Assembly: GCA_043228905.1 (NCBI GenBank)
Contig: JBHGNT010000004.1
Location: 930,001 to 994,000 of the forward strand
DNA length: 64,000 nucleotides
Direction: 5' to 3'
DNA from: Azolla caroliniana
Taxonomy: Eukaryota; Plantae; Polypodiophyta
The position numbers were made by a program, and so were the translations under genes. Numbering within the stretch: the first letter of the stretch is position 1; every line of letters begins with the position of its first letter. Shown here piece by piece: positions 3,326 to 64,000 of this stretch. The notes under the pieces were generated by a model. It was not told the DNA's origin. It saw only the letters and a program-made list of their open reading frames with translations, and searched no databases.

Positions 3326-3432
3326 TCATGACCTTGGAGAGGTCAGTTTCAACACACGAAATACCTGAAAAGTCTCCACACCCGACACACGCAAAGACAT
3401 CAGCTGTCAAAGGTTTAAATACAAATTTATAA
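3326..3432 (+). CDS. Probable terminal coding exon of the CIP7-related gene
   Basis: Acceptor TTGCAG ending at 3325; the phase-1 join gives an open frame (IMTLERSVSTHEIPEKSPHPTHAKTSAVKGLNTNL) to TAA at 3430-3432. Confidence 0.55.
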
Positions 3433-5499: not shown

Positions 5500-5747
5500 A
5501 GCACAAATGTGAAATGTGGTTCTCTTGAAAAAGCACATAACGTATTTGATCGCCTTCAAATCCGAGATGTAAATGCATAGAATACATTGTTATCTACCTT
5601 GAAAGCTTGTGGTAGCATTCGGGTTTTTGGATAAAGATTATGTTGAACAAGAGCAAGTTGAAGAAGTATTGAAATGGTTCATAACTATGACTTGTGAGGA
5701 TTTGTTTCCGAATATAAGCTACTTTTGTTGTTGTCTATGGATATGGA
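5500..5747 (+). pseudogene. Degenerate PLS-class PPR gene fragment running into the assembly gap
   Basis: Translated pieces KCGSLEKAHNVFDRLQIRDVNA*NTL, STLKACGSIR and DYVEQEQVEEVLKWF are PPR S/P/L motif remnants with stops and frameshifts. Confidence 0.65.
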
Positions 5748-27487: not shown

Positions 27488-29699
27488 ATGGATGTGAATG
27501 AGTAACACTATCACATCGAATATATATGAGTATGCCATCTTTCACATTCGATAAAAAGCTTGCAAGAAACATAGACCCGGTGCCAAATGTTTCACACGAT
27601 AAATATCTTCTTCGAAGTTTCTCATGGATCAAATCCAAGTGAACACCAAGCATAGTTACATCCATTAATTCCCTTTGGAATTGCTCATTTAATTTATTTA
27701 ATTCCACAAGAATATCTGCCAATAGGTGCAACATAAATTGCACTTGGAATATAGTAGCATACTCGTACCATTTTTTCTCATGTTTTTCCCATTGTTCTAA
27801 AATTGCGGGCATAAGTGTAACTAGTCTCTCCATTACTTGGCCTCGAGATAACCATCTTATGGAGTGAATTTTAAGCACCTTCAAATCACCCTTACCATGT
27901 CGTTTCATTATCTCTTTTAGCTCCTTGTGTCTATTAGTTGACTTTCCCAACCAAGAGTATACTTTATTTGCAAATACATCAAGGAAGCTAAACACATGGG
28001 CATGAGACATTATATATGCATCTTTTATGGCAAGTGCTTCACGATGTGCAATGCAATGTACTCCCAAAATATTAGGCATCATGGATTGAAACTTAGAAAT
28101 TGCACCATTGTTCTTCCCTATCATAGATGATGCCCCATCACTTGCAAAAGCCACAAGTTTTTTTAAATCTAAATTGCTCTCCAAAATGAATTCATTGATA
28201 GACTTGTAGATACCTTCAGCTTTCACATTTTCCACCGGAAGAAGTCGCGCAAATTTACAATGTGGCTCCCCTTTGCCACCTTCACTTAAGTACAATACAT
28301 AGATAATGAGGTGTTTTTCCAATGTACGATCAGTGCTTTCATCAATCAAGATGGAGAAAAATGGACTTCCACGAATTTCATCATACAAGAGTTTCCTTGT
28401 GTGGTTCTTAATGGCCATTAAGAATTCTCTTGCAGATTTAGCATTAGCATAAGCACCATATTCTTTTGAGGCAGGGGCGTTTGGAGTACCAAGTTCTCTT
28501 TGTAACATACATTGTTTTACATATTTCTCTAATGGAATATCATTGCAAGCATGAAAATGAACCAACTTCATGCATAAAAGTATCCTCTCATATTCTAAAT
28601 GCATGATTTCTGAAATTTTGTCATCCATTGGGCCTTTCACATTTGCATTTTCCTTTTGTCTTTTTGCATTATACATGGCACTTGCTATCACATGATCGGA
28701 TGACTTTGCATGTTCATTCAATGAAGACATTTGCATGCTTTGAGATCCACCATCCGCAAATACATTGTTCTTTCTTGCATCTTCACACCACATGCATTTG
28801 ATTATATCATCACCTAATAGGGACTTTGTCACATATGCCCATGGGTGAAGCAAAGTCCATTGGTTTCTCCACTTTCTTTTTTGTTTGTTATAAGAAGATC
28901 TCGACTCATTTGTGTTTGTAACCACCTCGTGCTCATTATTTGGAGCATCATTAACATGTGTTGCCTTGCAAAACATAGTCTTAATAGAATGTTGTTGTGC
29001 TTGGTTCTTTGTTTTCCCCCTGAAATTATTTAAATAATAGACATCTAAAAATGTACTAAAAGTATTTCATTTCACTATAATAGAGACATTGAAGTTATTG
29101 TTTAGGTATTAAGGTAATACAAAAACAATATTGTATAATAACTTGTTAAATGAACATAATATGATAGATATTCATGGTAACTTACATTTTTAAAATGTAG
29201 TTAAAAAATGTTGAAGGTTGAAGGCTGTTTTTGTTCTATTCCCATTGCACAAAAAGGCTACATAGAATCAATAATTTTTAATTGGAACAATAGCTTGCTA
29301 CCTAATAGTAAGTACTCACCTTTTCCTATACTAATAAGTTATTATTAACCCTAATTTTTTAATAAAGCATAGTAAAACGTAATAAGTATGTATAAAACAA
29401 TAGGTTAGTAAAACATTTAGTTTAAAAAAACTTAAAATCAAACCTTATTGAAATGAAATACTTTTAGTTTATTTTTAGAGGTATTAAGGTAATACAAAAA
29501 CAATATAATAACTTGCTAAATGAACATAATATGATAGATGAGCATGGTAACTTACATTTTTAAACTGTAGTTAAAAAATGTTGAAGGTTGAAGGATGTCT
29601 TTCTTTGTTCTATTCCTGCTGCACAAAAGGCTACATAAAATCAATCATTTTTAAGTTGAAAAATAACTTGTTACCTAACAGTAAGTAGTAAGTAGTAAG

Positions 29700-32600
29700 T
29701 GTTACACTTGCGTGTTCCTCTAGTAGCTTTGATGTGAACCATTTTCCCTATACATGGGCACTTTTTACTCTAGTGCTGGCTAGAGGTTTTTTCCCCATGT
29801 TACCACATACATGAGTTACTCATAAGTGGTGGTACTGAGTACTTAGGGATATATATTTTCAGCTCCTATTTTTTTTAGGAACATTTTTTTTCATCAATAG
29901 AGAGCAATTCCAGCCATTGCCTTCCTTGTGTGAGTGCTTCTTTCTTTGAGCTTCTTGTGTGTTTCCCACTCTTCCTCACATACCCAACAGTGGTATCAGA
30001 GCCAAGTTCTTCATCCTCTCCATCTTCGGTTGTCTGCATCGCGGTGTCGCGGCGCGCGCGCACTTTTCATTGTGCAAATCAACTTCCGAATATAGAGAAG
30101 TGTATTTCAGCACTTGGAGCGCATTTTCAGCAGGTACCCTGCTGTTTTACCCCCATTTCGAAGCCGTTCGTGTAGTCGAAATCGTCATCCGAGTGATAGT
30201 TTGTGAGCTGCATTTTCAGCACTCATTTCCGATTTGTTGAGGTAATATTTTACCACTTTCTTGTTCTTTGGTAAAATGGCAAACAATGATGATTTGTTTG
30301 GCATGCTTCAAGCTGAAGATAAGCTTGATGGGACAAACTATCCAATGTGGTCCTACATGATGAAACACGTTCTTGTTGCCAAACAACTATGGAACATAGT
30401 GGTAGATGTAGATCGACGCCCCGCCGGTCCTACTACTTCACAGTCTACTATCACAGATACAGGTTCATCTTCGAGCACAGTGACTTCATCTACTCCACCA
30501 ACACAAGAGCAACTTAGATGGGATGGAAAAGATGCTCAAGCTCATGCATTGATTGCACTTTCTGTGAAGCGTCATATAGTTCCACATATTCGGTCATGCT
30601 CTACATCCAAACAAGCATGGGACACTCTTGCTTCGTTGTATGCCGTGCGTAACGAAGCACGTGTTGCATATTTGAGAAAGCAACTTGAGGATGTATATAT
30701 GGCTGAAAATGAGTCGGTAGATGTGTATGTGACACGCATTAAAGATTTGAAAGAGCAATTGGCAAACATTGATGAGATCATTTCGAATACATCACTTATC
30801 TCTACGTTGTTGAAAGGATTACCCGAATCTTTTCAAAGCTTTGCTACTACTATTCGTTTGGTTGCAAAAGGGAATACGGATATGTACGCATTTGATGAGG
30901 TTGTGTCTCTTCTTCTGCAAGAAGAACAATCTAGAGTGAATAGAAGTGGTTTGATAGAGGGAACACAAGCACTTGCTATCTCACAAAAAGGAAAAGGCAA
31001 GCATGGTTCAGCTTTTGGTTCTTCAAAACCAAAGCCTCAACCTCCCTCTTTCACTTATTCCTCTAATGATGGTGATTTGCAAAAGAAGAAAAAATGCAAA
31101 TATTGTTGAAAGGTTGGCCATACGATTGAAGAATGTAGAAAGCTTGTTAAGCGCAATGAGAAGAAGAAGGAATCCGGCATGACCATTTCTGAAAATGTTT
31201 CAAGTGCAAAGAGTGATGAGGCCAACATGGCTCAAGATTATTGGGCATGTGTTGTTACATATCATTATGATGCATCATTGCACTCTAAATGTATGGTTGT
31301 AAGTGAGATTGATTCGGATTGGTTCTTTGATAGTGGTGCTTCAAAGCACATTACTTCATGCAAAAGTTTTTTTGCATCCTTGAAAGATGCACCCAAAGGT
31401 GGACATGTGGTGTGTGCAAACAATGCCTCTTATCCTATCATTGGAGTAGGAGAAATTGAGCTTTCGGCTGCAAATGGAGGTGTTGTTATCTTAAAGAATG
31501 TATTGTATGTGCCCGGTATCAAGAAGAACTTAATTTCGGTTCCTTTGATTGCCAAAGCCGGACTTCATGTACATTTTGTTGATGATAAGTGCATGGTTCA
31601 CTATTATAGCAATGGTGATGTTATCGTGATGTCCGGTACATTATGCAATGGCTTGTACCGTTTAGATACATACAAGAGGGCTTCTCTAAATGCCTTGGCT
31701 GTACATACTTCTTCCATGGCTGAAATGGAGCTTTGGCATGCTCGTTTTGGTCACTTGAACTTCAATAGTTTGCTTCACTTGCAAAAGAAGGATATGGTTA
31801 TTGGGTTGCCTACACTTGAGTCCATTGAAAAACATGCATGTGAAGGTTGCATTCTTGGAAAAATGCATCGTGCTTCTTTTCCAAAAGATAGTCATACACA
31901 CACTACAAGAAAATTACAACTTGTTCATAGTGATGTGTGTGGTCCTGTAAAGACTCCATCTTTTGGAAAGCATGTATATTTTGTTACCTTCATTGATGAT
32001 GCTACTCGTCATACATGGGTGTATCCTATGAAAGCAAAGAATGAAGTCTTTTCTTGCTTCAAATCATTTTTAGCTATGGCTGAAAATTTTTCCGCAAATA
32101 AGCTCTTGACTCTACGCACGGATCGTGGTGGCGAATATATGTCACATGAGTTTAATGCTTTTCTTTGTGAAAGAGGTATTTTACATCAATGTACGGTGCC
32201 ATATACACCTCAACAAAATGGTGTTGCAGAACGCAAAAATAGAACACTCTTAGAGATGGCACGATGTATGGTTAAAGGAAAGCATCTTCCTAACAAGTTT
32301 TGGATGGAAGCGGTTATGTGTGCAAATTATGTGTTGAATCGTTGCCCTACAAAAGCGTTGAGAGTCATTACGCCATATGAGGCTTGGAATGGACATAAAC
32401 CTATGGTTAGTCATATGCGTGTGTTCGGTTGTTTGGCATATGCTCTTGTGCCATCACAACAACGTCACAAACTTGATGACAAGGCAAAGAAATGCATATT
32501 TGTTGGTTATAGTGCGGAAAGTAAGGGATATCGTTTGTATCATCCATTGACGGACACAATTATTGTGAGTCGAGATGTGGTATTTGCTGAAAATTCAGCT

Positions 32601-34883
32601 TTCCCTTTTCTTGAATGCAAAAAACAACCAACAGTTAGCTCACAAGATGTGTTTGATACACTCATGCCTTTGTTCCAAAGTGCTGCGCTTGACCATGGAC
32701 ATGTAGACCAGCCAAGTGAGTCTCAAAGGGATAAAAATTTCCAGCAAATAAGTGTTGAAAATGCACGAAATGTCCAACCAAATGTGGCTGAAAATGAGCA
32801 TGAAATTCAGCCCACGCATGATGTACATATTGAAGATGTATTACATAATGAACGTATGGCTATCGAGAGGTCACAAACTATGCCGAGGTGGCTGAAACAA
32901 ACTTTGCAAGATAGCAAATTGAGTGCACCTTTACTTGGTAAAACAAGATCAAGCTCTCGCCATGCATCAGGTAATTTTGTGGATTATTCTATTGTTGCAA
33001 TAGCATGTAATGAGGAGCCACTTACTTTTGAAGATGCATGTGATGATCCACATTGGATGAGTGCTATGCAATCAGAAATGGATTCCATTCATAAAAATGG
33101 TACTTGGGAGTTATGTGAATTGCCAAAAGGAAAGAATGTGATTGGTACTAGGTGGGTTTACAAGGTTAAACGAAATCCCGATGGTAGTATTGATCGCTAC
33201 AAAGCTAGATTGGTTGCCAAAGGATATGCCCAACAATATGGCATTGATTATGAGGAAACTTTTGCACCTACTTCACGCATGACTACCATTCGTACCGTGG
33301 TTGCATTGGCTGCCCAAAGAGGTTGGAAAATGCATCAATTGGACATAAAAACAGCCTTTTTAAATGGTGATTTGCAAGAAGAGGTTTATGTGAAGCAACC
33401 TCCTGGATTTGCTACGAAAGAGAAAGAGCATATGGTTTGTCGCTTGCATAAGGCCTTGTATGGTCTCAAGCAAGCTCCGCGTGCATGGTATGAAAAAATC
33501 CATAAGCACTTGATTTCTCTTGGCTTCACATGTAGTCCGATTGAAAGCACACTTTATGTACGCAAAGATGGGGCTGATCTTCTAGTGCTCGTTCTTTATG
33601 TTGATGACATACTCTTGACTGGGTCATGTGATGCAAAACTCGATTTTCTTATGGCTGATTTGCAGCATACTTTTGAAGTCACTTATCTTGGTCTTTTGAG
33701 CTACTATCTTGGCATCCAGTTTGTATCCGTTGAGGGGGGAATGTTTATGCATCAAGGAAAGTATGTTGAAAAACTACTTCAGCGTTTTGACTTTGAGGAT
33801 TGCAAGCCGGTTTATACACCTGTGGAGACAGGATTTAGGTTCTCTGTTGAGGATTCTAGTGATGCGTTTGATACTTCTCTTTATCAACAAGCTGTGGGAT
33901 GTCTTATATATGCATGCAATACAAGGCCGGATATACAGTATGCAGTCTCCCAATTGAGTCGATTCATGCATAGCCCTGGCACTAAGCATTGGCAAGCAGT
34001 GAAACGTGTGTTCAGATATCTTAGAGGCACTTTGAGCTTGGGTCTCTTTTATGGCAGAGATACTCAGCCATGCTTGCATGCTTTTACAGATAGTGATTGG
34101 GCTGGTTGTTATGATACTCGCGTGTCCACTAGTGGTAATTGCTTTTTCTTTGGAAACTCATGTATATCTTGGTTGAGTAAAAAGCAACCTACAGTGGCGA
34201 CATCAAGTTGTGAAGCTGAGTACAGGGCAGTTTTCACAGCTACAGTGGAGTGTATATGGCTAAGACGCATTTTGATGGATCTTTGCATGGAGATTGAAGT
34301 TGCTACACGTATTCTCACAGATAGTCAGAGTGCATTGGCTGTTGCACGAAATCCTGTTTTTCATGCACGGACCAAACACATTGAGGTGCATTATCACTAT
34401 GTGAGAGAGCGCTTTCATGCAGGAGATATTGATTTGGTATATGTGCCTACACAAGATAACGTGGCAGACATATTCACCAAAGCTCTTCCACGAGAAAAGT
34501 TTGAAGCTTTTCGCAAAGCTTTAGGCTTATTGCCTTGTGGGGGCTGATCTGTCACTCCTTGTACATGTTCACATCATTCGCTCCAGGGGGGTTTGTTACA
34601 CTTGCGTGTTCCTCTAGTAGCTTTGATGTGAACCATTTTCCCTATACATGGGCACTTTTTACTCTAGTGCTGGCTAGAGGTTTTTTCCCCATGTTACCAC
34701 ATACATGAGTTACTCATAAGTGGTGGTACTTAGTACTTAGGGATATATATTTTCAGCTCCTATTTTTTTTAGGAACATTTTTTTTCATCAATAGAGAGCA
34801 ATTCCAGCCATTGCCTTCCTTGTGTGAGTGCTTCTTTCTTTGAGCTTCTTGTGTGTTTCCCACTCTTCCTCACATACCCAACA
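29700..34883 (+). mobile_element. Ty1/copia element 2, complete and very young
   Basis: 290-bp LTRs at 29700-29989 and 34594-34883 (one substitution seen); PBS tggtatcagagcc at 29991; PPT agggggg before the 3' LTR; TSD gtaag at 29695-29699 and 34884-34888, confirmed by the empty site in hAT copy 2. Confidence 0.96.
30276..34547 (+). pseudogene. Copia-2 gag-pol, single reading frame with one premature TGA at 31107-31109
   Basis: ORFs 30261-31109 and 31179-34547 are in the same frame; the stop lies inside the knuckle CKYC*KVGHTIEEC; protease WFFDSGAS, integrase RTDRGGEY, RT YVDD and RNase H DSDWAG are intact. Confidence 0.93.
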
Positions 34884-35167
34884 GTAAGTACTCACCTTTT
34901 TCCTATACTAAAAAGTTATTACTAACCCTAATTTTTTAATAAAGCACAGTAATAAGTATTAAGTATTAAGTAATAAGTAATAAGTATGTATAAAAAAGTA
35001 GGTTAGTAAAACATTTACTTTAAGAAAACTTAAAATCAAACCTAGAGTGACTAGTCTACACTCTAGTATTTTTTAGAGTATTTAATAAAGCACCAAGGTT
35101 ATTGTTTAAAATTTAAATTGATTTGAGGATTCATCATTACAATTTATATGATATTATTTTAAGCGTG

Positions 35168-38612: not shown

Positions 38613-38706
38613 TAGCCTATATTAAGGTTGATTGGTCCCTCTTATAGACATAACTTAAAGACCAATTTGAAAGCTATCTTTATTGTGTTAAAGGGTAGGA
38701 TAGTTG

Positions 38707-39533
38707 CCGAAAAAAGTCATTTGCTTTCGATGGTTGTTGACTCATTATGCTCTTCCTGTTGGTGATTTGTTGAGACAACATCAACAATATGCTTGTGGAT
38801 TGCATTGTGGCACACCTACTAAATCGATTTTGCATGTATTTTGGTTATGTCCCAAGATCAAGAAATTTTGGAGTACGTTGTTTTTATGGTTGAGACAACA
38901 CTACTCTCGATCAATATTCTCTTGGGGTGCAGTATTGTGGGGTGTCCTTCATGGAGAGGTTATGAGGTATGAAAGTATGCATGCTTCTCATGTTTTTCCT
39001 TTTTCTTATGGACACCTCGCTCTCACCTCGTTTCCTTCTTCTATTTCACGGTTTAGAATTAAAAATCTGGTCATTTGGCATACAATTATATCATTGGCTC
39101 TTTGGATAATATGGAAAGCGAGATGTGATTCTGTTTTTAACAATGCCCATATACAGCTCAACACTATGCTTATTGAATTCTGGATGTTTTTTGTTCACAC
39201 ACTTCATGGCCAATAAATATGATGATCTGCATGGCTCGGATGATGTTTTGTGGCAACGGCAAGTGGCCTTTAAGAACCGATGGCAAGGACTCCAATTATT
39301 TTCAGAGACAACTGCTGGTCCAAAGTGGAATTATGCCATACCTTCGTTTATGTTGGATAGTGGATAGTAAGTATTGTTCTACTTGTTCATATATGACATC
39401 ATCTATATCATCAGATGTACTAGCTTTTGTATCTTACAAAAAGAAGTGAGATGAAATATCTTCTTTTGTTTTTCTTATGTAGACTTTTCAAGTAATATAC
39501 TAAGGTGTATCTTCCTTAAAATAAAAATAAAAA
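38707..39533 (+). mobile_element. 5'-truncated LINE 3' end (zf-RVT region and 3' UTR)
   Basis: 18-bp TSD taaagggtaggatagttg at 38689-38706 and 39534-39551; (taaaaa)n tail; PKKVICFRWLLTHYALPVG..C..C..SILHVFWLC..LWIIWKARC. Confidence 0.9.
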
Positions 39534-39663
39534 TAAAGGGTAGGATAGTTGGGAAACTAAGGTATAATATAAGGTAATATAAGAAAAAAATGACATACAA
39601 AAGAGAATTGTAGTAAACTCTAGTAGAAAACCAAAACTTTTGCACCTCAAGAGTAAAAAGACA

Positions 39664-48470: not shown

Positions 48471-48511
<41 letters not shown>

Positions 48512-51500
48512 AGAACGTAATTTCAAAATTATATCAAGACTCTACATACACACTGTGCTAAGTAGCACTATTTATACAAGTCCTCTTGGGACTGACAGAA
48601 GTACCATGTACTTCAATGCTCACACGAGCATCTGACACTTACTACGAGACTATAGATACCTAGTAGTCTATCCTATTCTAGGCTTCCGATTGGACTGCCG
48701 GTTACGGATTGCACCCGGCCTCCACTGCTTGCCGGTTCGGTTGCTCACCGTCATACCGATCCGTTTCGCCCGATCCGTCTCACTTACCGGCTTCAGCTTA
48801 TTCAGCCGATCCGGCTCCGGTTGAGCTTGCCCCTCAACACTCCCCCTCACTCCGTCTTGCTCGCGCTCCTCGTCCGGTCCGGTCCCGTTTGCCGCGATCC
48901 CTTTGGTTCTGCGTGCCTCGACCCTCTCGGTTGGCATGTCTGCTCAATAGGCCCATCTCAGCACTCACGTTGTTGTGACTCCGACGCTTGCCGATCCGTC
49001 GGTTCTCCCACGATGGCATCGACTTTCGCTGTGTCCGTGTTCCCTTGGTCTTCAGTCGATCCGACTCATCCGGATCCATCTGTTGATCCGAGTCAGCTGT
49101 CTCCGACTCGTTCCAGCTCTTGTCCGAATCGGTACACTCCGATTCGACTTCCGGCTTCAGGCCTCTCACCACATCGGACCACTTCCGTGTCTTGGCCTTC
49201 TCCATGCTTCCCTCAGCTTCTTCAGCCGGTGAACCGAAATCGAATTCTTCATTCGACTCCGCATCATGGTCAGTACCGCCGTGATGACCTCCGCACAGCA
49301 TGCACTTCTCTTCCTGAGTGCACAACTCTTCTTCACAGCCGCTTGCTTCGACCTGTTCGGATGTGTCGACTTCCTTCGCCGACTCGGCTTCCTTTATCTT
49401 CTTGTCTCCTCTTCTTTCGGCTCTCCTCTTACCGACGGGTTCAATAGTTTGTTGGCCTTTGCCCGTTTCGGTAGAGACTTTGTCCCTGCTTCTCCCCCTC
49501 AAGTGCGGCACGTCGAGATGCTGAACACCAAGCATGTCGGTAAAGTGCTGCAACTTGTCCGATCCGAGCGGCTTGGTGAAGATGTCGGCAACTTGCCGAT
49601 CCGTATGAACATACCGTAGGTCAACTTCACCGCTCAGGACCCGCTCACGCACGAAGTGGTAGTGCACCTCGATGTGCTTTGTGCGAGCATGGAACACAGG
49701 GTTCCTGGCGAGCTGCAGGCTGCTCATGTTATCGCAGTAAATCGGGATCGGGGTCGGCACCTCGATCCGCAAGTCTCGCAGCAGTCGCCGAAGCCAGATG
49801 GCCTCACAAGTGGCAACGGTAGTGGCCCGGTACTCAGCCTCAGTGCTTGACAAAGCCACTGTGGGCTGCTTCTTGCTGCTCCACGCAACGGCCGCGCTAC
49901 CTATGGAGAACATGTATCCGGAAGTAGAGCGGCGATCAGACGCATCGCCGGCCCAGTCAGCATCTGTGTAACCGACAAGCTCTTCGGGTATACCTCGCCG
50001 GTATAGCAAACCCCGATCTTTAGTGCCGCTGACATACCGTAATATTCGTTGCGCGCATTGAAGGTGCTCCACGGTCGGCTTTTGCATGAACTGACTTACC
50101 ATACCGACCGGATAGCTGATGCCGGGTCGAGTGATGGTTAAGTAGATCAGGCTTCCGACAACCTGTCGGAACCGTTTCTCATTGCAGGCCGGTCCGGAGT
50201 TGGGACGGAGCTTCTGGTTCCGGTCCAGGGGTGTGGAGACAGGTCGGCAATCCGTCATGCCGAACTTATACAGCATATTCAACACGTAATGTCGTTGTGA
50301 GAGCAATATGCCGTCAGGGGTCCGGATCACTTCGATCCCAAGAAAATAATGAAGGTCCCCCAGGTCCTTCATTTCGAATGCGTCCGACAACTGGGACTTG
50401 ACGCGGTTGATTTCGGGAAGACCTGGTCCGGTGATGACTAAATCATCCACATACAAGAGTATACATACTGGACCGTCAGAGCCTTGCCAGATGAACAGTG
50501 AAGAGTCCGACTTAGAGACAGCAAACCCCAGCTTACGCAACCAGTGCGTGATCTTCGCGTTCCAAGCTCGGGGGGCTTGCTTCAAGCCATAAAGCAACTT
50601 CTTCAGTCGGCATACCGCCGATTTGTTCATCTCCGATTGAAATCTGGGGGGCTGAGTCATAAAGACTTCTTCTTCAAGCTCTCCTTGAAGGAAGGCGTTC
50701 TTCACATCCATCTGATGAAGATGCCACCCCCTTGCCGCAGCAACCGCCAGTACCACACGAACTGTCGTCATCTTCGCCACAGGAGCGAAGGTCTCGTCGT
50801 AGTCGATTCCGTGGGTCTGCGCGTATCCCTTCGCCACTAACCAGGCTTTGTACCGGTTAACAGAACCGTCGGCGTTGTACTTGACCTTGTACACCCACTT
50901 GCATCCAATCGGTTTACAGTGACGGGGAGGATCAACTAGGTCCCAAGTTTTGTTGGCATCGAGTGCCCGCATTTCTTCGTCCATAGCGGCACGCTAATTT
51001 GCGTCCTTTGCTGCTTCTGCGTAGCTCTCCGGCTCGCGCACTTCTGTCACCTTAGTCATGTACACATAATGATGCGCCATGTATTCATTGTACCCGTACC
51101 GCACAACAGGATCCTTCTGACGGGTTGACCAGCGCAACGCACCGTCACCTGATTTGAGGCCCTTCTTGGCCAATTCGGTCTTCGTTGCCGAAGATCTGCC
51201 TTTCTCCTTTCCAGAGTCGGATACACACCGATCCGACTCATCGTTGCCGGTTTCGAATTCCGGCATCTTCCTCTTCCCCTTCTCTTTGCGCGTGAATCGT
51301 TTCCTCGGTTCCTTGCGCGGGGAGAGCACGGCAGAGTCTCCACCACTTGCCATCTCTTCATCTGACTGGTCCTACCGACTCAGTCACTCGTTCGGTCCAC
51401 TCAGCCGCAACGATTCCGGACTCTCATCTTGAGTCCCGGCTTCATCATCCTCTTCCAAGGTTGATTCAGGCTCACTGGCCTGATCTTCCGGCATTCAGTC

Positions 51501-54288
51501 AGGATCGGAAGTCGGAGTCGGTACGGAGTACCAAGATGCCGATTCATCGAACTCGACATCACGGCTAACTCGGGCTTCCTTCGTCCGGGGGTTATAGCAC
51601 TTATACCCCTTTTGCTCTTGAGCATAGCCGACTAGGATGCATTTTTCCGATTTTGCATCCAGCTTCCTCCGCTTCTGATCCGGCACATGCACATACGCTA
51701 GGCTGTCGAATATCCGAAGGTGTCTTAAGTTCGGCTTGTGCCCGAAATATAGCTCATGAGCTGACACCTTGTCACCAATGCGGTTTTGTATGTAGACGGC
51801 CGTCTGGACCGCCTCCGCCGAGTAGAACCGGGCATGCTCTTCTCCTCCAACATTGTCCTTGCCGCCTCGACGAGTGTCCGGTTCTTCCTTTCGGCCACAC
51901 CGTTTTGCTCCGGTGTGTATCTGCAACTGAACTCTCGCCGAATTCCCTTCTGCTGCAGATAACTAGTGAATTGGCCGGAAAAATATTCCTTTCCGCCATC
52001 CGACTGAAGGCATTTGATCTTCCTCTCTGATTCCCGTTCCACCATCTTCTGGAGGCTCCGGAAACAGTCGAAGACTTCGCTCTTCCGCTCAATGAGGTAG
52101 ATCCAAGTATGTCGAGTATAGTCGTCGATGAAGGAGACGAAGTACCGGCTCCCACCAAGGCTTACACTTTGTGTCGGTCCCCACACATCCGAATGGATGA
52201 GATCGAGCTTGTTACGGCTCCGGTTCCGTTCGGTGGGGAATGGAAGCCGGTGTTGCTTCCCAAGTTGGCAGGCTTCACAAATTTCGGCTCTCCGGCCACT
52301 GAACTTTGGCAAACCGAAAACGACTTGTTTCGTTTGCAGGTCTTGAAGCCTCCGGTAGTTGACGTGGCCTATCCGCTTGTGCCATAGGTCGATGTCCGAC
52401 TCGACCTTTTGTCGTTTCGCGAACAGAGCGGTGCCAATGTCATTGGTGTTGAGGATAAACATCCTCCCGTCTCTGCGCCCTTGCGCAATGACTTCGCCCT
52501 CATCTTCAATGAAGCACCCGAGGTGCGTAAACCGCACCTGCATCCCTTGGTCGACAATCTGACCGACGGACACCAGGTTCTTCGTGATCGTCGGAACGTG
52601 TAATACGTTCATCAGCTTCCCTTTCTGTCCGACGTGGCTTAGAGGGACTTCTTCGACGTGCACGATTGGGTGTGGAGTGTCGTCTCCGGTTTCGACTACT
52701 CCTGGTTGATCCGGTTTCTCCAGAAAGGAGAACCACTCTTTGTGGCTCGTCATGTGGTTCGACGCGCCGGAATCAACATACCACACTTCCTCCGTTTTGG
52801 AAGTGGTCTTCTTCATTGAGTTTGCCTTGTGATTCATCACCAAGGTTGGCCCCTTACCGGCCTTTCCGGTTCCGGATCCTCCTGATCCGTTTGCGTAGTG
52901 CGAGTTTTGCCGGCCATCCTTACCGGTCTTGCCGTATCCGGATTTGTCCAAATCGGCACGCTTTCTCCAACACTCGCTTTCCCTATGGCCTTTTTTGCCA
53001 CAGTACCAGCATTCCGTAGCGGATTTGTCTTGCCGGCCTCCGGCACCGCCTTGACTCCCCCTGCTTGTGGACGTCCCGGAACTGCTGTCGGCACACTCAT
53101 AGTGCCTCCGTTCCTGCTCTTGTCGGCCGCCTCCATTGCATGCCGACCCACCTCTTCCACCACGCCCACAGTGCCGATCCGTTCCCGTGTACAGCATTCG
53201 GCTGTCCGGGGATGCACTGGTAGATGCACCGGCGTGGTTCTCCTCTACAAGGAGCATCGGCTGTAAGTCGAAGAATGAGGGGGTATTCTCCCTTGTACAC
53301 ACCGCAGTCCGGAATGCTCCGAACTTGGACGTCAGGCCTCCGAGACATACCTGCACCATCTCGTCTTCCTCTACGGTAACATTGATAGAGGCGAGCGAGT
53401 CACAGATCTCCTTTATCCGGCCCGTGTAGTCTGCCACGGACATGTTCTTCTGTCGAACATTGCTCAACTCCTGTCTGAGTTGTAGCTTCCGGGCAATGGT
53501 GCTTGCGGCGAAAACCTTTTTCAGGTTCCCCCAAGCATCCTTCGGTATCTTGGCGTCACGGATGTGGCTGAGCAGCTGATCGCCGACACTGGACGCGAAG
53601 CAGTACATCACCCTGCTTGCCGCCTGTTCCCATACCGGGAAGTCCTTGTGTGCCGAGTCGGGTGCCGCATCATTCGCTCCTTCGACATAACTCCAGTACC
53701 TGTGTCCAAGCAAGTACTGGTGCATCTTGTAAGACCAGGATGCGTAGTTGCTCCTGTCGAGCTTCTCCACCGGGAGTGACGTAGCCATTCCTCTATCCAT
53801 GTCTTCTACTGTGTCTGTTTTCGACCTATTAGGGTTTTCTTCTCAAGAGTTAAATGTCTGCAGCAGAGGTTCTCAACCCTCGTGCTCTGATACCATGTAA
53901 ACGTGAGTGTTTGCAAAAGCGTAAACCAGAGAACAACAGAGAGAGATAGAGAGAGAGAGCAGAACGTAATTTCAAAATTATATCAAGACTCTACATACAC
54001 ACTGTGCTAAGTAGCACTATTTATACAAGTCCTCTTGGGACTGACAGAAGTACCATGTACTTCAATGCTCACACGAGCATCTGACACTTACTACGAGACT
54101 ATAGATACCTAGTAGTCTATCCTATTCTAGGCTTCCGATTGGACGGCCGGTTACGGATTGCACCCGGCCTCCACTGCTTGCCGATTCGGTTGCTCACCGT
54201 CATACCGATCCGTTTCGCCCGATCCGTCTCGCTTACCGGCTCCGGCTTATTCAGCCGATCCGGCTCCGGTTGAGCTTGCCCCTCAACA
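48431..54288 (-). mobile_element. Ty1/copia element 3, complete
   Basis: LTRs at 53896-54288 and 48431-48839 (TG...CA; they differ in a GA microsatellite and several substitutions); PBS (gctctgatacca on +) at 53884-53895; PPT ctccccct at 48840; TSD ggaat at 48426-48430 and 54289-54293. Confidence 0.96.
48834..53800 (-). pseudogene. Copia-3 gag-pol, disrupted, with a long C-terminal extension after RNase H
   Basis: Motifs CWYCGKKGHRESEC, WYVDSGAS, WHKRIGH, SDGGKEY, YVDD, DADWAG and KHIEVHYHF; frameshifts near 51825 and 51500; stop at 50994. Confidence 0.92.
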
Positions 54289-55593: not shown

Positions 55594-56410
55594 ATTGGAA
55601 ATGGCTATGAGCCATGCAAATTCCTAGAAAAGTTGTCTTGTTTAGATGGTTGTTGGTACATTATGGCACCCTTGTGAAGTCATGGATGAAGGGGCATTGC
55701 CATGATTTAAAATGTGACAATTGCGGTTTTCCCAATGAAACAATGCACCATGTTTTATGGGTATGTCCTATAGCTAGAGTAGTATTGAAAAGAGTGTTGA
55801 GAATTTTGTATCCTATTTATGGTAAACAGGCGTACACATGGGGTTTTGTGAGATGGGGACGATTGGCTAAAGAAATACAGAATTATGAAAGGGATTGTGT
55901 TGATTTTCTTCTCCTCTCTGATGGAAGACATGTGTTGGAGGCCTCTTATACTACACTAATCCATTGTTTGGAAGAAGACAAGGTTTGGGCTATTGTATCT
56001 TCTTTAGTAGTTTGGATGTTATGGAAGGCAAGATGTAAGTGTGTATTTCAGAATGTCAAACCAATTGCGGTTGAGTTAGTCAAGGAGATATGGTTGATGC
56101 TCCTGCATACTCTAAGAGGTCAATATGAGGCAATACATGGTGAGCCTGATGTTGTGTTTCGCAAACAACAACAATTTCAAGAAATTTGGAAAAAGGCAAA
56201 GGTCTTCACCTATTTTGGGGACAGAATAAAATGGAGATATGCTCCACCAAGATGGCTTTTTCCGCCCCCTATCTTGAAAATACCATGCATGAGAGTTTTT
56301 GCTACTAGAAATGTCCATTCATGTGGGTAGGAGGGTTGTAATAGATTGTATGGATACTTTGTAGCCTTTGGGCATCTTTTCATTAATACCACGGTGAATC
56401 TTGACTTTAA
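55594..56410 (+). mobile_element. 5'-truncated LINE 3' end with an open 238-aa zf-RVT/C-terminal ORF
   Basis: IPRKVVLFRWLLVH..CDNCG..ETMHHVLWVC..WMLWKARC..LRGQYE..WRYAPPRWLFPP; flanked by (TA)n on both sides. Confidence 0.88.
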
Positions 56411-56459
56411 TATATATATATATAGATATATATATAAACGATAATAATAATATTTTCTA

Positions 56460-57103
56460 TTCAAAGATATCGCACTTGGAAATGCACTAGTGGATATGTA
56501 TGCCAACTGTGGTTTGAGTATTAAAGCACAAAATGTACTTGATGAGCTTCAAATCCGAGATGTAGTTTCTTGGTTCATATGTATGCTACATGTGGTGTGC
56601 TTGAGGAAGCAAGAAAAGTATTGGAAGAGCTTCATCTTCGAGATATGTTGGCTTGGTCAGCCCTTATTGTTGGCTATGCTCAACAAGGACAAGCACATGA
56701 AGCCCTGAAGTGTCTCAAACACAAGGAAAGTGAGGGCATATCTCCTGACAACATAACATTAGTATGTGTGATGAGTGCAGGTGGTCACATTGGGCTCATA
56801 AATGATGCCAAAATGATTTTTCAGGTTATGACCACAAAATATTGTATTTCTCCAAACTTAGAGCATCTTAATTGCATGGTTGTAGTATTTGGATGTGGGG
56901 GTAATATGATAAGGCTATTTCAGTGATCAAGGTAATGCCATTTTTTGAGTATTCAGTCATATGGATTTCACTATTGGGTGCTTCTAGGAAATGGGGAAAT
57001 GAGAAGCTTTGGAGATTATCTTTGCAATACAACTATATAATAATGGTATCATGTCATATGTTCTCATGGCTGATATATTTGGAAGTGTTAGTAACATGAT
57101 CTG
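56460..57103 (+). pseudogene. 5'-truncated PLS-class PPR gene, C-terminal motifs with E1/E2 and no visible DYW; probable retrocopy
   Basis: ALGNALVDMYANCG..IRDVVSW; HMYATCGVLEEARKVLEEL..AWSALIVGYAQQGQAHEAL; PDNITLVCVMSA; PNLEHLNCMVVVFG; IWISLLGASRKWGN; SYVLMADIF; frameshifts; no introns evident. Confidence 0.88.
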
Positions 57104-57864
57104 AATAAAACATTATTATTGGCGAAAGCAAGAATATGAATATGCCATGGATGTTTATGTCAATGAGCATATGATGGTTGCATATAATGATCATGGATGA
57201 ATTGATGAATTTGGTGGGTTCTGACAACTCATAAACATGAACATACCATTGATATCTATATCAATGAACATATCATGGATGCTTTTACTGATGATATTAA
57301 CAAGGATTTCTATATCGATGGTGGTTGTATATAAGGGAACCTGAATCTGCAACCTATGAACATGAATATATCATGGATGTTGATGAGCATGCAATGAAAT
57401 TTCTGCCCATAATGTAAACATCTAGGGAAACTTGACGTCACAAATCAAGGGTCATGAACCCAAGCTCACGGCTTGGAGAAAGCAAGGAATGTACAAAAAA
57501 CAATGTGTGGTTATTGTATATACTCATCAATTCGGCCATGATGAGAGTACAAGCGAATCTGTTGGTATATTTGTTTATCCAACACAACTTTTGTAGTTCT
57601 TATGATTTTATAATACCAAGGCCTATCTTTTTTAAAATAAAAAATAAATAAATTACCATAAAATAAATAAATATTTAATAATAAAAATTAGTAAATAAAA
57701 CAACATAGAAATAACAATAATTAATTATGAATCTTACTCATCAACAATGTACTTAAATTTACTAAACTCGACGAACCTAGAAAAACACACACACACACAC
57801 ACAACAACTAAAGCATAAACCCTAAACCCTAAACTTATGTTCCCGCTAGAATTCTTTAAGATAT

Positions 57865-58588
57865 TGTAACATCCTCGAGCATTGTACCCACAAAGACTCT
57901 CCGCTCCATTCTCTCTGGGTCAAATTCCTGGTGGATCCGATCTACTTCACACGCACACGCATAACTTCGTGACCTTGTCTTCAACGTTATTGATTGAATC
58001 ATGTGTACCTTCCCTTAGTATCTTTGAGGATTGTGTCAATGGTAGAGATATTTTCTATATTTGTTGTCTTACTCGTAGTTTTAGTGTAAGATCTTATTAG
58101 ATCTTGAGAGATTAGGTCAAATCTTGTGTTGCCATAACTATAAGTGGTTTGAAGAAAGGTTAATCTACAAGAGCCTAAAGAGGTAGGACACAAAAAGACT
58201 CGAATAATCTTGCTAGGAGATTGGGCGATGAAAACATAATAAGAGAAGAGGAGTAGTAAAACATTAATCAATCATTGAGAAGAAGGGGAAGAGTTTCGTT
58301 AAGGTGGGAGCAAAATCAATCAAAGACAAATGTGGTGTTGTCATATGTGTCAACGAGTGGCTCATCATACACAATATGTTCTTCCCAATTTTGGAAGCAT
58401 AAATTCCTTACATGCTCCTCATTTACATCTTTAAAGAGGACAAAAGTATCCATGGACATTGGAATCCTAAAACTTACCTCTCTTATCCAATTGTCTCTGC
58501 ATCGTCTTTGCAATAGTCTAGTAGGAGGTTAATAGCGGACCTCCTTGTAACTAAACCTTCCGAGGGTTGTGTGAAGCCTAGTGTCACA
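57865..58588. mobile_element. Possible old solo LTR
   Basis: Termini tgtaaca...tgtcaca; flanks atat/ctat are only an imperfect TSD; no recognisable coding domain. Confidence 0.3.
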
Positions 58589-58955
58589 CTATTGAACTTA
58601 TTTTCTAATGCTTTTCCCTTGCCCAATTCCCCCTTACACATCAACGAGGGGAACTTTCGGCTCCCAGAATACCCCTAAGTATCAACACATACACACACAC
58701 ACACACACACACTAACATCAATTCCTATAAGCTAACCCCATTTATAAAGTTTAAAACAACACTTACACAGATGGGTGCGCATTCACACAAAAATATTGCA
58801 ACCAACACATACACAACTACACATACCCCTTACCCTACACACATGACACAAGTTCATTTATACATAAATAAACATCTACTTGGCACACATAATTTACACA
58901 TCCTAGCATACATAAAGGCTTATTATGAGCACATGCACACAAGAGTACACACACA

Positions 58956-59324
58956 TTTACTAATGAGATTAACATGGATTTCTATATCGATGGTGGTTGT
59001 ATATAAGGGAATCTGAATATGCAACCTATGAACATGAATATATCATGGATGTTGATGAACATGCAATGAATTTTCTGCCTATAATGCATAGATTTAGGGG
59101 AACTTGAGTTCACAAATGAAGGGATACGAACCCAAGCTTAGGGCTTGGAGAAAGCAAGGAATATTGAACATCAATGTACAAAAAACTAGGTGTGGTTATT
59201 GTAGATACACATCAAATCGGCCATGATGAGAGTACAAGGGAATCGGTTGGTATATCCAACACAACTTTTGTATTTCGTATGATTTTATAATACCAAGTTG
59301 TATCTTTTTGTCAAAAAGAAGAAG
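58956..59324 (+). mobile_element. Short retroposed copy of the sequence 3' of the PPR pseudogene (paralogous to 57284-57640)
   Basis: Collinear similarity over about 360 bp; (gaa)n tail; degenerate TSD aagagt..cacacattta.taa at 58941-58963 and 59325-59345. Confidence 0.75.
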
Positions 59325-60041
59325 AAGAGTGCACACATTTAGTAAGCTAAATGCATGTCATAGCTACACACATACAAATACATACATTAAACATAGAGTT
59401 CCACATTACCACATACCCAAATGTCTTACTTACTACTACATTTGTGTGGTGACCGTCTAAGAAGGGGGGAAAACACAAGGAGCAAGACTATCCCACTCAA
59501 GTTTTGCAACCCTTCATTAGCAATACCAATCCATCTTCCTTGGTTTAGGATGCCGCCATTTAATATTGTCTCTCTGTGTGTCTCTCTCTCTATTGTTCAT
59601 CTTAATCTTGTTAAGTTGTCTAATACTGAAATCTTATGTTCATCTTGTTTATGTATATCAATCTTGATGTTCTTCACACTATAGTACCGATTTGTTATCT
59701 ACACATTACGACCTTGTCACCAACATTTGGTATCAGAGCACAAGGTTCGTTTCATTGTCAATCATCATCAGTCTCATCACCAACACTCCTGTCTTTCACC
59801 ATTGAAGACTTCAAGATTCGACTAGGCGACATTCGAGTAGGCCAATCGGCATAGCATGTGCCCAATTCGGCTAGGTGTCACGGACATGACAACTGTCATG
59901 GCAAGATTCCAACTCTTGACCATTTGTATACTACGTAGTCAAGTGTTATGTTCTAACCAACACATCCAAATACATAGTCATGTTATAAAAATCTTACTAG
60001 ATTATTAGTAGATTATCTATTCCAAGTTCTAGAAGTTTTTA

Positions 60042-60129: not shown

Positions 60130-60560
60130 CTTGTAACCTTTCAACGTCAATCATTGACACATCAATCTAGTATTATCGTTTTATTCCATCTTGCCTTTTT
60201 CTTCATCTTTGTATTCATGCTCTTGTGTCATTCCTAGCTTCTTAAATTCCTCGTTCGTAGCCCTATCATCTGTGTTGCGTCCGAGTTAGCAGTTCGTGTG
60301 TCCATGACAGTTTGAATCTCTTCCAACTGGAAGCATCACCTGTCTTCGTCATCGCCTTTGGTTCTAGAGTTAGCATCATCACCGTCCTTGCTTCCGGAGT
60401 ACCCATCATCAACATCCTTGTCTTTGACATCATCATTTTCAACACCTCTTCGCTCAAGCTTCATCCTCATCAACACTACTTTCCATGGTATTTCATGATG
60501 ATCATTGTTCCACCCTCTTCATTGTCATTATTATCATCTATAGGCATCATTTTGCATAAC

Positions 60561-61490
60561 GATTTTGGTGAGGATTGCTTTCGATCGCTCATCTTCCCAA
60601 TTCTTGTGGGGGTGACAAGCGCTCACTTTCCTGGTGGGGATCAGATCATTGCTCGTGTGCACTCCATTTTCATTTTAGTTCAAGTATCGCTCCACTTTCC
60701 TTTGGCGAGGACTGATTATGATCGCTCACCTTCCCAGTTCTGGTGGGGGTCACAACCGCTCACTTTACTGGTGGGGATCGCGTCGGTTTCCCGCTAGCGC
60801 CCTCTCATGATAGAAGAAGATTTTGGTGAGGATTGATTTCGATCGCTCACCTTCCCAGATCCGGTGGAGGTGACAACCGCTCACTTTCCTGGTGGGGATC
60901 ATATCATTGTTCGCTTGCACTCCATTTTCATTTTAGTTCAAGTCTCACTCCACTTTCTTTTGGCGACGACTGACTTCGATCGCTCACCTTCCCAATTCCG
61001 GTGGGGGTCACAACCGCTCACTTTCCTGGTGGGGATTGCGTCGGTTTCTCGCTAGCGCCCTCTCATGATAGAAGAAGATTTTGCTGAAGATTGATTTAGA
61101 TCGCTCACCTTCCCAGGTCCAGTGGGGGTCACAACCGCTCACTTTCCTAGTGGGGATCACTTTCGGTTTCTCGCTAGCGCCCTCTCATGATAGAAGAAGT
61201 CGAGTCGACCTCTTCATCTGCACTCCTTCACCTGGTGGTGTTCTAGTTCCCGGTGAGCACCACATGGTCGCTCATGCCCGTTGGTGTTCGTGTTCCCGAT
61301 GACGACCGCACATGGTCTCTCGCGTTGTTCATGTTCCAATTCCTAGTGAGGACCACATGTTCGCTCACACTTGTTCATGTTCCCAGTGAGGACTACACAT
61401 GGTCACTTACGCCCGTTGATGTTCCAGTCTCCAGTGAGGACCTCACATGGTCTCTCACATTCGTACATGTTACTATTTCTAGTGAGGACT
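60561..61490. repeat. Internal tandem arrays: 258-bp unit (two full and one partial) followed by about six ~40-bp units
   Basis: gattttggtgaggattg at 60561 and 60819, with a variant at 61077; then repeated gtgaggaccacatggtc.ctcac..gttcatgttcc. Confidence 0.85.
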
Positions 61491-62323
61491 CGCTCAGTCA
61501 TCAATCCACTTTGCTTTCCTACTTTAGCTCGCCATTGCACCATGACGCTTTCGAAAAGGCGGCCATAAAGGAGAGGATAATGTCACGGACATGACAACAA
61601 GCATGGCTAGTTTCGAACTCTTGACCACTTGCATAATAGTCAAATGTTATATTCTAACCAACACATCCAAATACATAGTCATATTATAAAAAACTTCGTA
61701 GATTATCTTCTCTAAATTCTAGGAGTTTTCAAAAAGTTCTAGAACTAGAAGGTTCTAGAGGGTTCTAGAATATTCTAATGCATGTACTTCATCTCACAAT
61801 ATAAATACTTGTAACCTCCTTGGTCCCTTTCAAGGGATTCAACGGCAGTCATTGACACATCAATCTAGTATTCTCGTTTCATTCCATCTTGTCTCCTTCT
61901 TGATCTTTGTCTTCATGCTCTTGTGTCATTCCTAGCTTCTTAAATTCCATGTTCGTAGCCCCATCATTCGCGGTCCATTTGAGTCAGCAATTGGTGTGTT
62001 CATGACACTAGGCACCAATCCAGATAGATCAGTCGGGCAGAACAAGTTAAAAGTCGACGCAGTTCGTGTTCAATTAAGCCAAATCAAATTCGGGTGAACC
62101 AGCCAGTTGCACCCACTTACCAATAGTAGCCACTCCGGACATAACTTTTAGACCATCCATCTCACATAAAAAATAGCATCTATATTCGGCTCATTAGAAA
62201 TGAGTTTCAAGAAGTTTGATCGATCGAACTTCAGTTACTTTTGGACGGAACAAATGCAAGATTATCTAATCGTGAAGGGTTAGATCGATCCGATTGAGAA
62301 CGAAAATCCTCCTAGAGAGTATA

Positions 62324-62996
62324 ATTTTTATTCCCAAGATCAAGCAATTTTGGAGTAAGTTGTTTTTATTGTTGAGACAACATTATTCTCGTTCTATTTT
62401 GTGGTGGGGTGCAATATTATGGGGTGTCCATGGAGATTTTATGAAGTATGAAAATAGGCATGCTTCTCATGTTTTTCACTTTTCCCATGGACACCTCTAT
62501 CTCATCTCATTTCCATCTTCTATTCGATGGTTTAGAATTGAAATTTTGGTTATTTGGTGTACTATTACGTCATCGCCTCTTTGGATAATATTGAAATTGA
62601 GATGTGATGTTGTTTTTAATAATGCTCACATACATCTCCGGACCATGCTTATTGAATTTTGGTTGTTATTTGTCTATACACTACGTGGTCAATATGATGA
62701 TCTACAGGGTTCAAATGATGTTCTATGGCAACGTCAAGTGGCCTTTAAGAAACGGTGGCAAGGGCTTCACTTATTTTCAGATACAACTAGTCTGAGGTGG
62801 AATTATGCCATACCTTCTTTTTTGTTGCATAACTTATAGTTTTTGCTCCACTTTTTTCTTATATGATATCATCTGTTTGAGCAGATGTTGGTACTAGCCT
62901 TTGTATCACAATAGAAGTGAGATGAAATGTTTCCTTCTATTTTCTCTTGTACATTTCTCAAGTAATATACTGAGGTGTTTCTTTCTTTCTTTTTTA
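62324..62996 (+). mobile_element. 5'-truncated LINE 3' end, same family as 38707-39533, inserted in the copia gag remnant
   Basis: PKIKQFWSKLFLLLRQHYSRSI..LRGQYDDLQGSNDVLWQRQVAFKKRWQGL; degenerate TSD aaaatcctc..agagta.aa near 62303-62323 and 62997-63019; gag resumes after the insertion. Confidence 0.88.
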
Positions 62997-64000
62997 AAAA
63001 TCCTCTAGAAGAGTACAAGCCGAATGAATGGATAAAATTAGATCGGCTAGCGCGCGCCACCATTCGTATGCACTTATCCGTATCATTCTATTACGTTGTG
63101 CAATTGTGTTCGACAACTTTTGAACTGTGGAAGACATTGTCGACAGTCGGACACTTATGAAAAGAAGGTGGCCACCACGAAAATATATCTAATTCGGTGA
63201 TTGTACAATATTCGGATGAAAGCATCCGATTCACTCCAAGCACATTTGAACAAGTAAGAAAGCATAAACTCCCAAATTTTGACTCAGGGGATGACGTTGA
63301 AGATGAGTTCAAAGCTCTTTTGCTAATGAGTAGTCTCCCCCCTTTGTGGGAACTTTTGTTACCACCGTGTGCAATGCATTGGTTGCAGCTGTCACGAGCT
63401 CAATTATGTCAGAAGATGCTCAAATGAAATTGTTCATACACTTAGCATACATATTGTATGCAGATTATGCGGAGTATTCTACAAGTAGAATTAATAGTCA
63501 ATGTGTTTTAATTATCCACACAAAGTACACAATAATATAGAATAGATGAACGTTATGCAAGTCTTATGCTTATTCGAGCAATTGAAACATCAATAAATCA
63601 ATACATTATGTATGTGTTCACTTCACTATACATGTCCAACGTTAGATCTTCTTCTACTCACACATCCATAAGTATGCATCGAATGTAAGTTTTCTACTTA
63701 TATAGCACAAAAGGTTATTATGGAATAGGGCAAGTTTGTGCTTTGCTCCAACATTTTCATACGCCACGCACAATTTCAGGAAATACAAAGGTAACAGGTT
63801 AAAAAACTAACACACACATGGTGTTGGCCTTTGATATCCATAGTAATTCTTTTGTAGTGTAACTAGTTATGAGGTCCCCATAGGAATTCATTGGATTTGT
63901 TGGTTAGAATAAAGCAATCACAATAGGATTATGCCTTGGATGTTGGGAACTATGGTAACCTTATCGGTAACATGGTCGTGATAATGATCATTTAGTGTTA

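Follow-up and report, generated by a model that had tools for sequence, protein, structure and literature searches.

How does a host gene come to travel inside a retroposon? We considered this question for a stretch of 64,000 nucleotides from the fern Azolla caroliniana (assembly GCA_043228905.1, contig JBHGNT010000004.1, positions 930,001 to 994,000 of the forward strand; the whole stretch is called the window), in which two nearby copies of sequence from a pentatricopeptide repeat (PPR) gene end in the 3′ terminus of a long interspersed nuclear element (LINE). Several described systems come close. In SVA_F1 (MAST2) and the chimpanzee STK40-SVA, a host exon spliced to a retroposon founded a multi-copy subfamily; the resemblance lies in a spliced host exon that enters a source element, with further exons added later (PMC6139936). 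SVA, however, is non-autonomous and carries its exons at the 5′ end, whereas here a LINE with two open reading frames (ORF1 and ORF2) holds its cargo within the 3′ untranslated region (UTR). In Magnaporthe, WEIRD, Mg-SINE and MGL make up bipartite and tripartite LINE chimeras with duplications of about 14 bp, fused from transcripts by single or double template switches (PMC2104539). There the host RNA lies 5′ of a truncated LINE, whereas here LINE coding sequence lies upstream and nested subfamilies arose as the chimeras were amplified anew. Host sequence is likewise moved to new sites by L1 3′ transduction, but this takes DNA beyond the LINE end from one flank (PMC6431247); our copies do not fit it, since their cargo precedes the terminus and stems from three contigs (C1, C8 and C14).

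Other comparisons concern the LINE end and the PPR genes. LINE1-1_ZM with ZmSINE2/3 resembles our case in that L1-clade plant LINEs conserve their last ~45 nt despite divergence elsewhere; that report covers flowering plants and green algae (PMC3472496). It differs in that no hairpin is supported here and the passenger travels within the LINE as cargo instead of forming a short interspersed nuclear element (SINE) of its own. To judge from the sequence, our element would resemble a stringent-type LINE in the conserved 3′ terminus of all its derivatives and not in a stem-loop. R2 and the R2/R1 SIDEs, in which template jumps have been seen in vivo, also have internally deleted derivatives that keep the 3′ end for priming; SIDEs have lost the ORF and hold no host genes, whereas here the deletions hit the cargo (PMC3414825). 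The PPR expansion of early land plants is likewise ascribed to an RNA intermediate, from intron loss, A tails and flanking long terminal repeats (LTRs), and the word 'LINE' is absent from the accessible part of that paper (PMC13386178); the copies described here, in contrast, are pseudogenes. A further report notes that host genes with matches to non-LTR elements are too scarce to be analysed (PMC3597677), and the accessible part of PMC3747384 holds nothing on mosses or ferns. Our search, which covered open-licence papers and not repeat libraries (Repbase, Dfam), returned reviews but no description of a LINE subfamily that captures cargo.

We found that both window copies are 5′-truncated members of a dispersed family spread by retroposition, and that the PPR sequence of this family is cargo inside the 3′ UTR of an L1-type LINE. 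In our judgement it is likely that the copies are 5′-truncated LINE insertions with host cargo in the 3′ UTR, built by splicing and template switching. An intact PPR gene, L036, is the likely donor of the PPR cargo. The parts of the two copies are as follows.

56454..56571 (+): copy 1 (subfamily A), 5′-truncated start and first PPR cargo piece, 90% identical to donor -2057..-1938 (counted from the 3′ end)
56572..57199 (+): copy 1, second PPR cargo piece, a frameshifted pseudogene that ends at the donor's stop codon
57200..57489 (+): copy 1, host-derived 3′ UTR of the donor PPR gene, ~290 bp, aligning after the stop of the intact L036 gene
57490..57632 (+): copy 1, LINE-derived 3′ end, ~143 bp, aligning to the 3′ UTR of the cargo-free LINE L063
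57633..57720 (+): copy 1, A-rich tail grading into AT-rich flank, from the sequence
58956..59174 (+): copy 2 (subfamily B), 5′-truncated, donor PPR 3′ UTR only, 85% identical to copy 1
59175..59328 (+): copy 2, 3′ end of LINE origin that bears the 8-bp deletion of subfamily B, and an A/(GAA)n tail; motif at 59288-59306
58941..58959 (left) and 59325-59341 (right) (+): copy 2, degenerate target-site duplication, 17-19 bp

An earlier analysis of the window alone (the original prediction) had described a PPR fragment at 56460-57103 with a tail of ~540 bp, a second and shorter copy of that tail, and a motif at five LINE-like ends. All five motifs lie where it placed them, at 57611, 59288, 56384, 39493 and 62963. 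A truncated PPR fragment is indeed present, but it extends over 56454-57199 and contains an 833-bp internal deletion (56571/56572, between the two pieces) that is common to subfamily A. The structure of the first piece recurs in L002, L003, L004 and L021. The second piece matches donor residues 458-678 (tblastn 82/75/64%; PPR_2 match) with 4 frameshifts and 2 stops. The tail does follow the PPR part; it is composite: degenerate PPR coding sequence makes up ~95 bp, PPR UTR ~290 bp (57200-57489, missing from empty LINEs) and LINE sequence, which includes the terminal motif at 57611-57629, only ~143 bp. No target-site duplication was demonstrable for copy 1 (duplication finder score 9), because both flanks are AT-rich. 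Copy 2, with its degenerate duplication and (GAA)n tail as predicted, begins 1.32 kb downstream of copy 1's end; its segment 58956-59309 is 85% identical to 57284-57632 over 362 columns, and it is 90-94% identical to most subfamily-B loci.

The dispersal of the family is evident genome-wide, where in all searches only the best candidates were scored. In the 523-Mb genome, 42 matches to the 537-bp tail were obtained (best 40 of 257 candidates scored), nearly all of which end at a common 3′ end with differing start points, and a 28-letter 3′-end pattern gave 66 exact matches against 0 for its control. The family ends have A-rich tails and unrelated flanks on many contigs, and target-site duplications of 11-20 bp stand at 32 of 62 ends, compared with 1 of 600 mismatched pairs (score of at least 11). 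The duplication finder was given 84 loci plus the window and recognised 71 ends, of which 9 rows were excluded from this count (incomplete 5′ end, self-reference, nested insertion, duplicate, or <50 bp). The proposal that a PPR sequence joined to a LINE 3′ end was retroposed is thereby borne out. That the family 'now amplifies' is not: its copies are 4-15% diverged from one another (95-96% alike within subfamily A) and no intact cargo LINE was found. One short member (L080, C1:7357960-7358074), which consists of 96 bp of the family's end and has a perfect 18-bp duplication, lies inside an intron of what looks like a gene of the alcohol-dehydrogenase family.

What carries the cargo? The end of a LINE ORF2 or a LINE 3′ UTR precedes the PPR sequence in the long subfamily-A copies (L032 and L033) and in one subfamily-B copy. 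A query with the LINE part gave 43 matches (best 40 of 185 scored), from which 30 loci were retrieved: 13 are empty LINEs with the same type of terminus, and 17 hold cargo that starts at one and the same UTR position. A UTR segment of ~55 bp flanks the cargo on both sides, its left and right copies differing by 15-19%. In the tree of the LINE part, from which L041 was excluded as too short, the 17 cargo LINEs fall on one side of a branch with support 99/95. Long cargo copies bear LINE ORF2 and three also bear ORF1; L094, L096 and L098 are about full length. In L098, LINE, cargo and tail lie inside one perfect 16-bp duplication, and its profile matches above cutoff are zf-CCHC, Exo_endo_phos, RVT_1 and zf-RVT, with DUF4283 below cutoff. 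An ORF1 with DUF4283 and zinc knuckle and an ORF2 with AP (apurinic/apyrimidinic) endonuclease, reverse transcriptase and C-terminal zinc domain make up what we take to be the plant L1 layout. By its domain layout, A-rich tail, 5′ truncation and duplications, the carrier would be an L1-type LINE. A SINE-like, non-autonomous nature, as originally proposed, does not agree with the ORF1 and ORF2 upstream of the PPR sequence in long copies. Cargo deletions are common to several sub-lineages, and the chimeras were therefore copied again. The majority frame of ORF2 (20 cargo and 17 empty loci) has a variable poly-G run as its sole break, and the masters of the cargo LINEs were likely autonomous.

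Among the first 100 listed of 255 exact matches to the terminal motif, 35 belong to a second LINE family, F2 (26 checked as sequence and without cargo, 9 classed by motif alone), and 65 are of the cargo-LINE type. A tally of these 65 by hand gave 36 ends with host cargo (PPR in 13, some of them with EAF1 as well; actin in 23, some of them with PPR as well), 16 empty ends, 1 intact gene, 6 too short to class, 4 sister variants and 2 unclassed. Cargo copies are thus commoner than empty ones (36 versus 16 of the 65 ends classed). No cargo was found in other LINE families, among 26 F2 and 14 F3 loci. Six copies (L054, L055, L058, L089, L195, L241) are mosaics in which a short EAF1/PPR/tail remnant from one sub-lineage is combined with the PPR-actin cargo of another, pointing to recombination between cargo LINEs. 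Internal PPR cargo fragments with no LINE or tail nearby occur at L185, L186 and L187.

The cargo derives from three unlinked genes on C1, C8 and C14 (PPR, actin and an EAF1-like chromatin gene), and its junctions are informative. First, LINE UTR and PPR are separated by ~245 bp that represent a single exon of an EAF1-like gene, a name that we assume from the domain layout. This piece is 90% identical to the C14 exon, starts exactly at the splice acceptor and ends ~11 nt into the next intron; the C2 paralog, in which the HSA domain was found, was rejected as the source (71%). Second, in 21 of 21 matches the same UTR base is joined to the EAF1 exon (17) or to the PPR leader (4), and a GT donor-like site stands at this position in 14 of the 16 empty-LINE rows listed. 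The exact exon start opposite a donor-like site suggests splicing. Third, the actin cargo is the 3′ half of an actin mRNA, with its stop codon and ~120 nt of UTR; it is 92% and 87% identical to the C8 gene and lacks that gene's ~410-bp GT-AG intron, which shows an RNA route. The actin insert sits between two adjacent PPR bases with neither A tail nor duplication, which suggests a double template switch. The cargo junctions have 1-5 bp of microhomology. In one locus, L032 (C19), a segment of the EAF1 exon forms three to four tandem repeats (-2671..-1587), and a second cargo fragment directly follows the A tail (+14..+649).

The sequencing runs that we examined come from organisms some percent diverged, not from this strain. 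In a poly(A) run (X12, 12% of it read), 39 reads with ~27 starts pass from the LINE UTR into the start of the EAF1 exon, oriented as sense RNA would be in most types of stranded library, and contigs of X7 and X1 contain the same junction. In X2, the summed depth on L113:3835-4146 is ~1,000-3,400 over the last ~300 bp against ~5 in the flank, a value that is not a copy number; this form has a 38-bp deletion and different upstream sequence, and is perhaps a high-copy short derivative in organism B.

The terminal motif itself is a LINE terminus beyond chance, as had been proposed: against its 255 exact matches, the reversed control gave 1, and three LINE families have it in common although their ORF2 ends are only 28-38% identical. 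Its conservation, in an alignment of 33 ends, is in sequence only. The last 137 bp match 13 empty LINEs at 78-87%; for the subfamily-A and donor tails the identity to these LINEs is 79-87%. Derivatives retain 137, 118, 110, 101, 58 or 44 bp of the LINE end, and deletions never remove the last 44 bp; since the shortest retained end is 44 bp, a recognition signal is likely to lie within the last 44 nt.

How might such a unit have arisen? We propose that a LINE 3′ end of ~137 bp came to lie in the 3′ UTR of the L036 PPR gene, where it is found today, and that this gene then acted as donor. Its mRNA would have ended in the LINE terminal motif and could have been primed by the LINE enzyme, which may have switched from PPR mRNA to LINE RNA. 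Alternatively, the template may have been a LINE RNA already spliced from the donor-like site of its UTR onto the EAF1 exon. The expected product is the arrangement that the copies display, ORF1-ORF2-UTR-cargo-UTR-A tail, with the ~55-bp UTR segment on both sides. This unit was retroposed whole in several rounds, as the single clade, the nested shared deletions and the full-length copy in one duplication show, and its own ORF2 likely drove the process. Spliced actin mRNA was later inserted in the PPR cargo and parts of the cargo were deleted, presumably by further switches, the last 44 bp never being lost. The cargo decays neutrally, and it would thus be ballast that supplies no functional PPR genes.

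Several observations weigh against this reading. The junction reads GAG and empty LINEs read GAT, so that the splice needs one extra substitution; no LINE lies upstream of the C14 exon now; and the first ~25 nt of the type-2 leader have no match near L036 or in the five loci searched. No intact cargo LINE was found, and the ORF2 pN/pS ratios (nonsynonymous to synonymous changes), which rest on a multiple alignment, are 0.50-0.66 for shared and 0.81 for private changes (p 0.09). Because the LINE-part tree goes back to a search with a cargo copy, the best 40 of 185 that were scored are biased towards cargo rows. Just two subfamily-B members, L041 and L104, have upstream LINE sequence, and their junctions differ. 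The statistics for the donor are weak (p 0.06; support 81/68, as described below). The predicted stem fold at the motif received no energetic support; all 9 of 9 ends that were folded gave z values between -1.75 and +0.99, and they had no fold in common, no formal covariation count having been made.

A bolder form of our proposal, which we regard as unlikely, holds that the LINE end is a bay for gene capture, where the UTR splice donor and the 44-nt priming signal capture host mRNAs repeatedly. Cargo lineages would then out-replicate empty ones through some benefit of the host sequence (stability, export or escape from silencing), would still be transcribed and amplifying in related species, and would occasionally yield a working PPR gene, such as L036 or the 434-aa frame of L039.

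The status of L036 raises the first alternative. This gene is intact and intronless, encodes 678 aa with no stop or frameshift, and is the only full-length intact member among the best 40 of 1059 candidates scored. Its profile matches include strong PPR hits, an E_motif of 22.6 bits (cutoff 27.3) and no DYW match. Its pN/pS against the family majority is 0.44, compared with 0.79 for the copies (Fisher p 0.06), and in a tree with five paralogs as outgroup it has the shortest branch and lies outside the 15 copy rows (support 81/68). It could nevertheless be a retrocopy of a cargo LINE, truncated just after the LINE junction and selected as a new PPR gene: it ends in the LINE terminus and an A tail, lacks introns, has the tail state GGG in common with the B and actin lineages, lies at the same synonymous distance from the family as the copies do (0.051 and 0.050), and has 12 ORF changes of its own. 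We consider this rather improbable. No target-site duplication was found at the ends of L036, and truncation would have had to hit no farther than ~30 bp from the junction. Past the A tail of L036, the flanking DNA contains ~115 bp of the gene's UTR a second time (score 101; shuffles reached at most 47), a layout that the insertion of a short LINE end into a UTR already in place would produce. No other donor exceeds ~70% identity, the next paralogs standing at ~69% among the same best 40 of 1059, and the branching position of L036 also speaks for a donor. Finally, a relative's contigs cover the upstream DNA and ORF of L036 (33 differences, no gap in 914 bp) and the tail-to-flank junction, where the LINE piece is joined to the downstream flank across a 155-bp deletion. 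Reads over the L036 ORF are mostly partial matches from other PPR genes (92-94% continue unlike it), and no RNA run containing L036 was found among the sequencing runs listed. Upstream of the gene (-9353..-5057), a 1180-bp unit stands in a 100%-identical tandem, which is either a recent array or an assembly artefact.

Entry at the DNA level is the next alternative: retrocopies or repair patches would have landed in the LINE, and deletions would stem from DNA repair rather than template switching. The ~55-bp repeat around the cargo can be read as a long target-site duplication, and the microhomology of 1-5 bp at the junctions would suit repair. The actin insert, however, has no A tail or duplication and ends inside the 3′ UTR, the first base of the EAF1 piece falls exactly at a splice acceptor and faces a donor-like site, and the left and right UTR copies are 15-19% different; we find this account quite doubtful.

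Very doubtful, in our view, is a PPR mRNA with a LINE tail acting as a SINE-like mobile unit copied in trans, with LINE-PPR chimeras as occasional by-products. Subfamily B gives this idea some footing, in that its copies, collinear with the donor, branch close to it as an unresolved star, its five longest tail-linked copies other than L041 and L104 lack upstream LINE sequence, and the differing junctions of those two are what independent template switches would leave. Yet no copy extends into the donor's upstream DNA, only L036 covers query 1-102, and in each of the A, type 1, type 2 and actin lineages the long copies have LINE sequence upstream. Moreover, B shares 5 nonsynonymous and 0 synonymous changes and its 8-bp deletion (17 of 17 covering rows), and therefore derives from a decaying master, not from the gene. 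A SINE-like origin as a non-autonomous PPR retrocopy could thus apply to subfamily B only, which includes copy 2. It is scarcely conceivable that segmental duplication, a Helitron or a Pack-MULE carried the PPR fragment beside LINE ends by chance, for although the latter two typically unite fragments of genes from several loci (PMC6431247), the A tails, variable 5′ truncation, unrelated flanks and lost intron speak against all three, just three or four scaffold pairs look duplicated (L008/L009, L130/L131, L138-L141), and the spliced actin junction and the 11-20 bp target-site duplications refute them.

Under our preferred reading of capture by a LINE, what became of the PPR cargo? A stop or frameshift breaks 34 of 37 cargo rows and the other 3 are partial; these rows represent 36 loci (L011 and L041 are one element, and L130/L131 are probably duplicates). 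Changes on the stems of the sub-lineages (nonsynonymous:synonymous) are 24:6 plus 2 stops for A, 11:3 plus 2 stops for type 1 and 5:0 for B, and the sub-lineage ancestors differ at pN/pS 0.90-1.08, with fixed stops. The PPR cargo evolves neutrally. The original prediction expected tail and motif to be enriched at the 3′ ends of PPR genes; neither was found, within ~1.5 kb flanks, at any of the 10 nearest non-family PPR loci, which include two duplicated scaffold pairs. With broken, neutral cargo and ten PPR loci without the tail, its further claim that the family explains the expansion of PPR genes is not supported. One PPR gene would appear, from these sequences, to have been copied many times into pseudogenes rather than to have founded a functional PPR retrogene family. 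In a truncated subfamily-B copy, L039 (G000:C1:1039215-1040950, minus), a PPR frame of 434 aa (-1738..-434, counted from the 3′ end) is still open and free of indels and stops over 1193 bp; of the changes private to this copy, 37 are nonsynonymous and 7 synonymous, and selection is therefore not indicated.

The window holds further elements beside the two copies, of which three are LINEs.

55611..56410 (+): 3′ end of the separate LINE family F3, ORF2 C-terminus (zf-RVT, E 4e-5); motif at 56384-56402
38704..39534 (+): cargo-free F2 LINE, 3′ part with its own 17-bp duplication (zf-RVT); motif at 39493-39513
62320..62999 (+): second cargo-free F2 LINE fragment with a degenerate duplication, 81% identical to the 39-kb copy; motif at 62963-62983

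The F3 insertion is a mere neighbour of copy 1 and was rejected as a part of it: it is 38% identical in protein to the cargo LINE (F3 search: 41 matches, best 40 of 450 candidates scored), and 14 of 14 other F3 copies finish in A tails without PPR sequence. The 39-kb F2 LINE is 36% identical in protein to the cargo LINE. LINE ends of this clade often lie 1-2 kb apart, some directly after another's A tail (L215, L255, L264, L269 and window 55611-57632), and this clustering suggests that A/T-rich tails are favoured as insertion targets. At 5507-5571, beside an assembly gap, lies a short, degenerate PPR remnant that is 75-86% similar to the cargo repeat, with no tail seen. Three young LTR retrotransposons are recognisable at 21992-27785, 29700-34885 and 48479-54227 by terminal repeats of ~300 bp that are 98-100% identical and 4.9-5.5 kb apart. 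Tandem 258-bp repeats with 121/137-bp subunits (60561-61159) lie within an LTR-like element bounded by 60140-60309 and 61838-62007.

LINEs are known for moving host DNA behind their end or for one-off chimeras. The LINE subfamily described here, as a whole, inherits pieces of host mRNA inside its 3′ UTR and adds more serially, and in the sample classed it is commoner than its empty parent; such behaviour is generally ascribed to Pack-MULEs, Helitrons, LTR elements and SVA. Its derivatives provide a natural deletion map of the recognition signal of a plant L1, with a length of at most 44 nt, in a lineage whose stringency had not been settled. The family also offers a concrete route by which a PPR gene may become retroposable, and a caution for PPR counts, because dozens of PPR-like and actin-like matches in this genome are LINE cargo and not genes.

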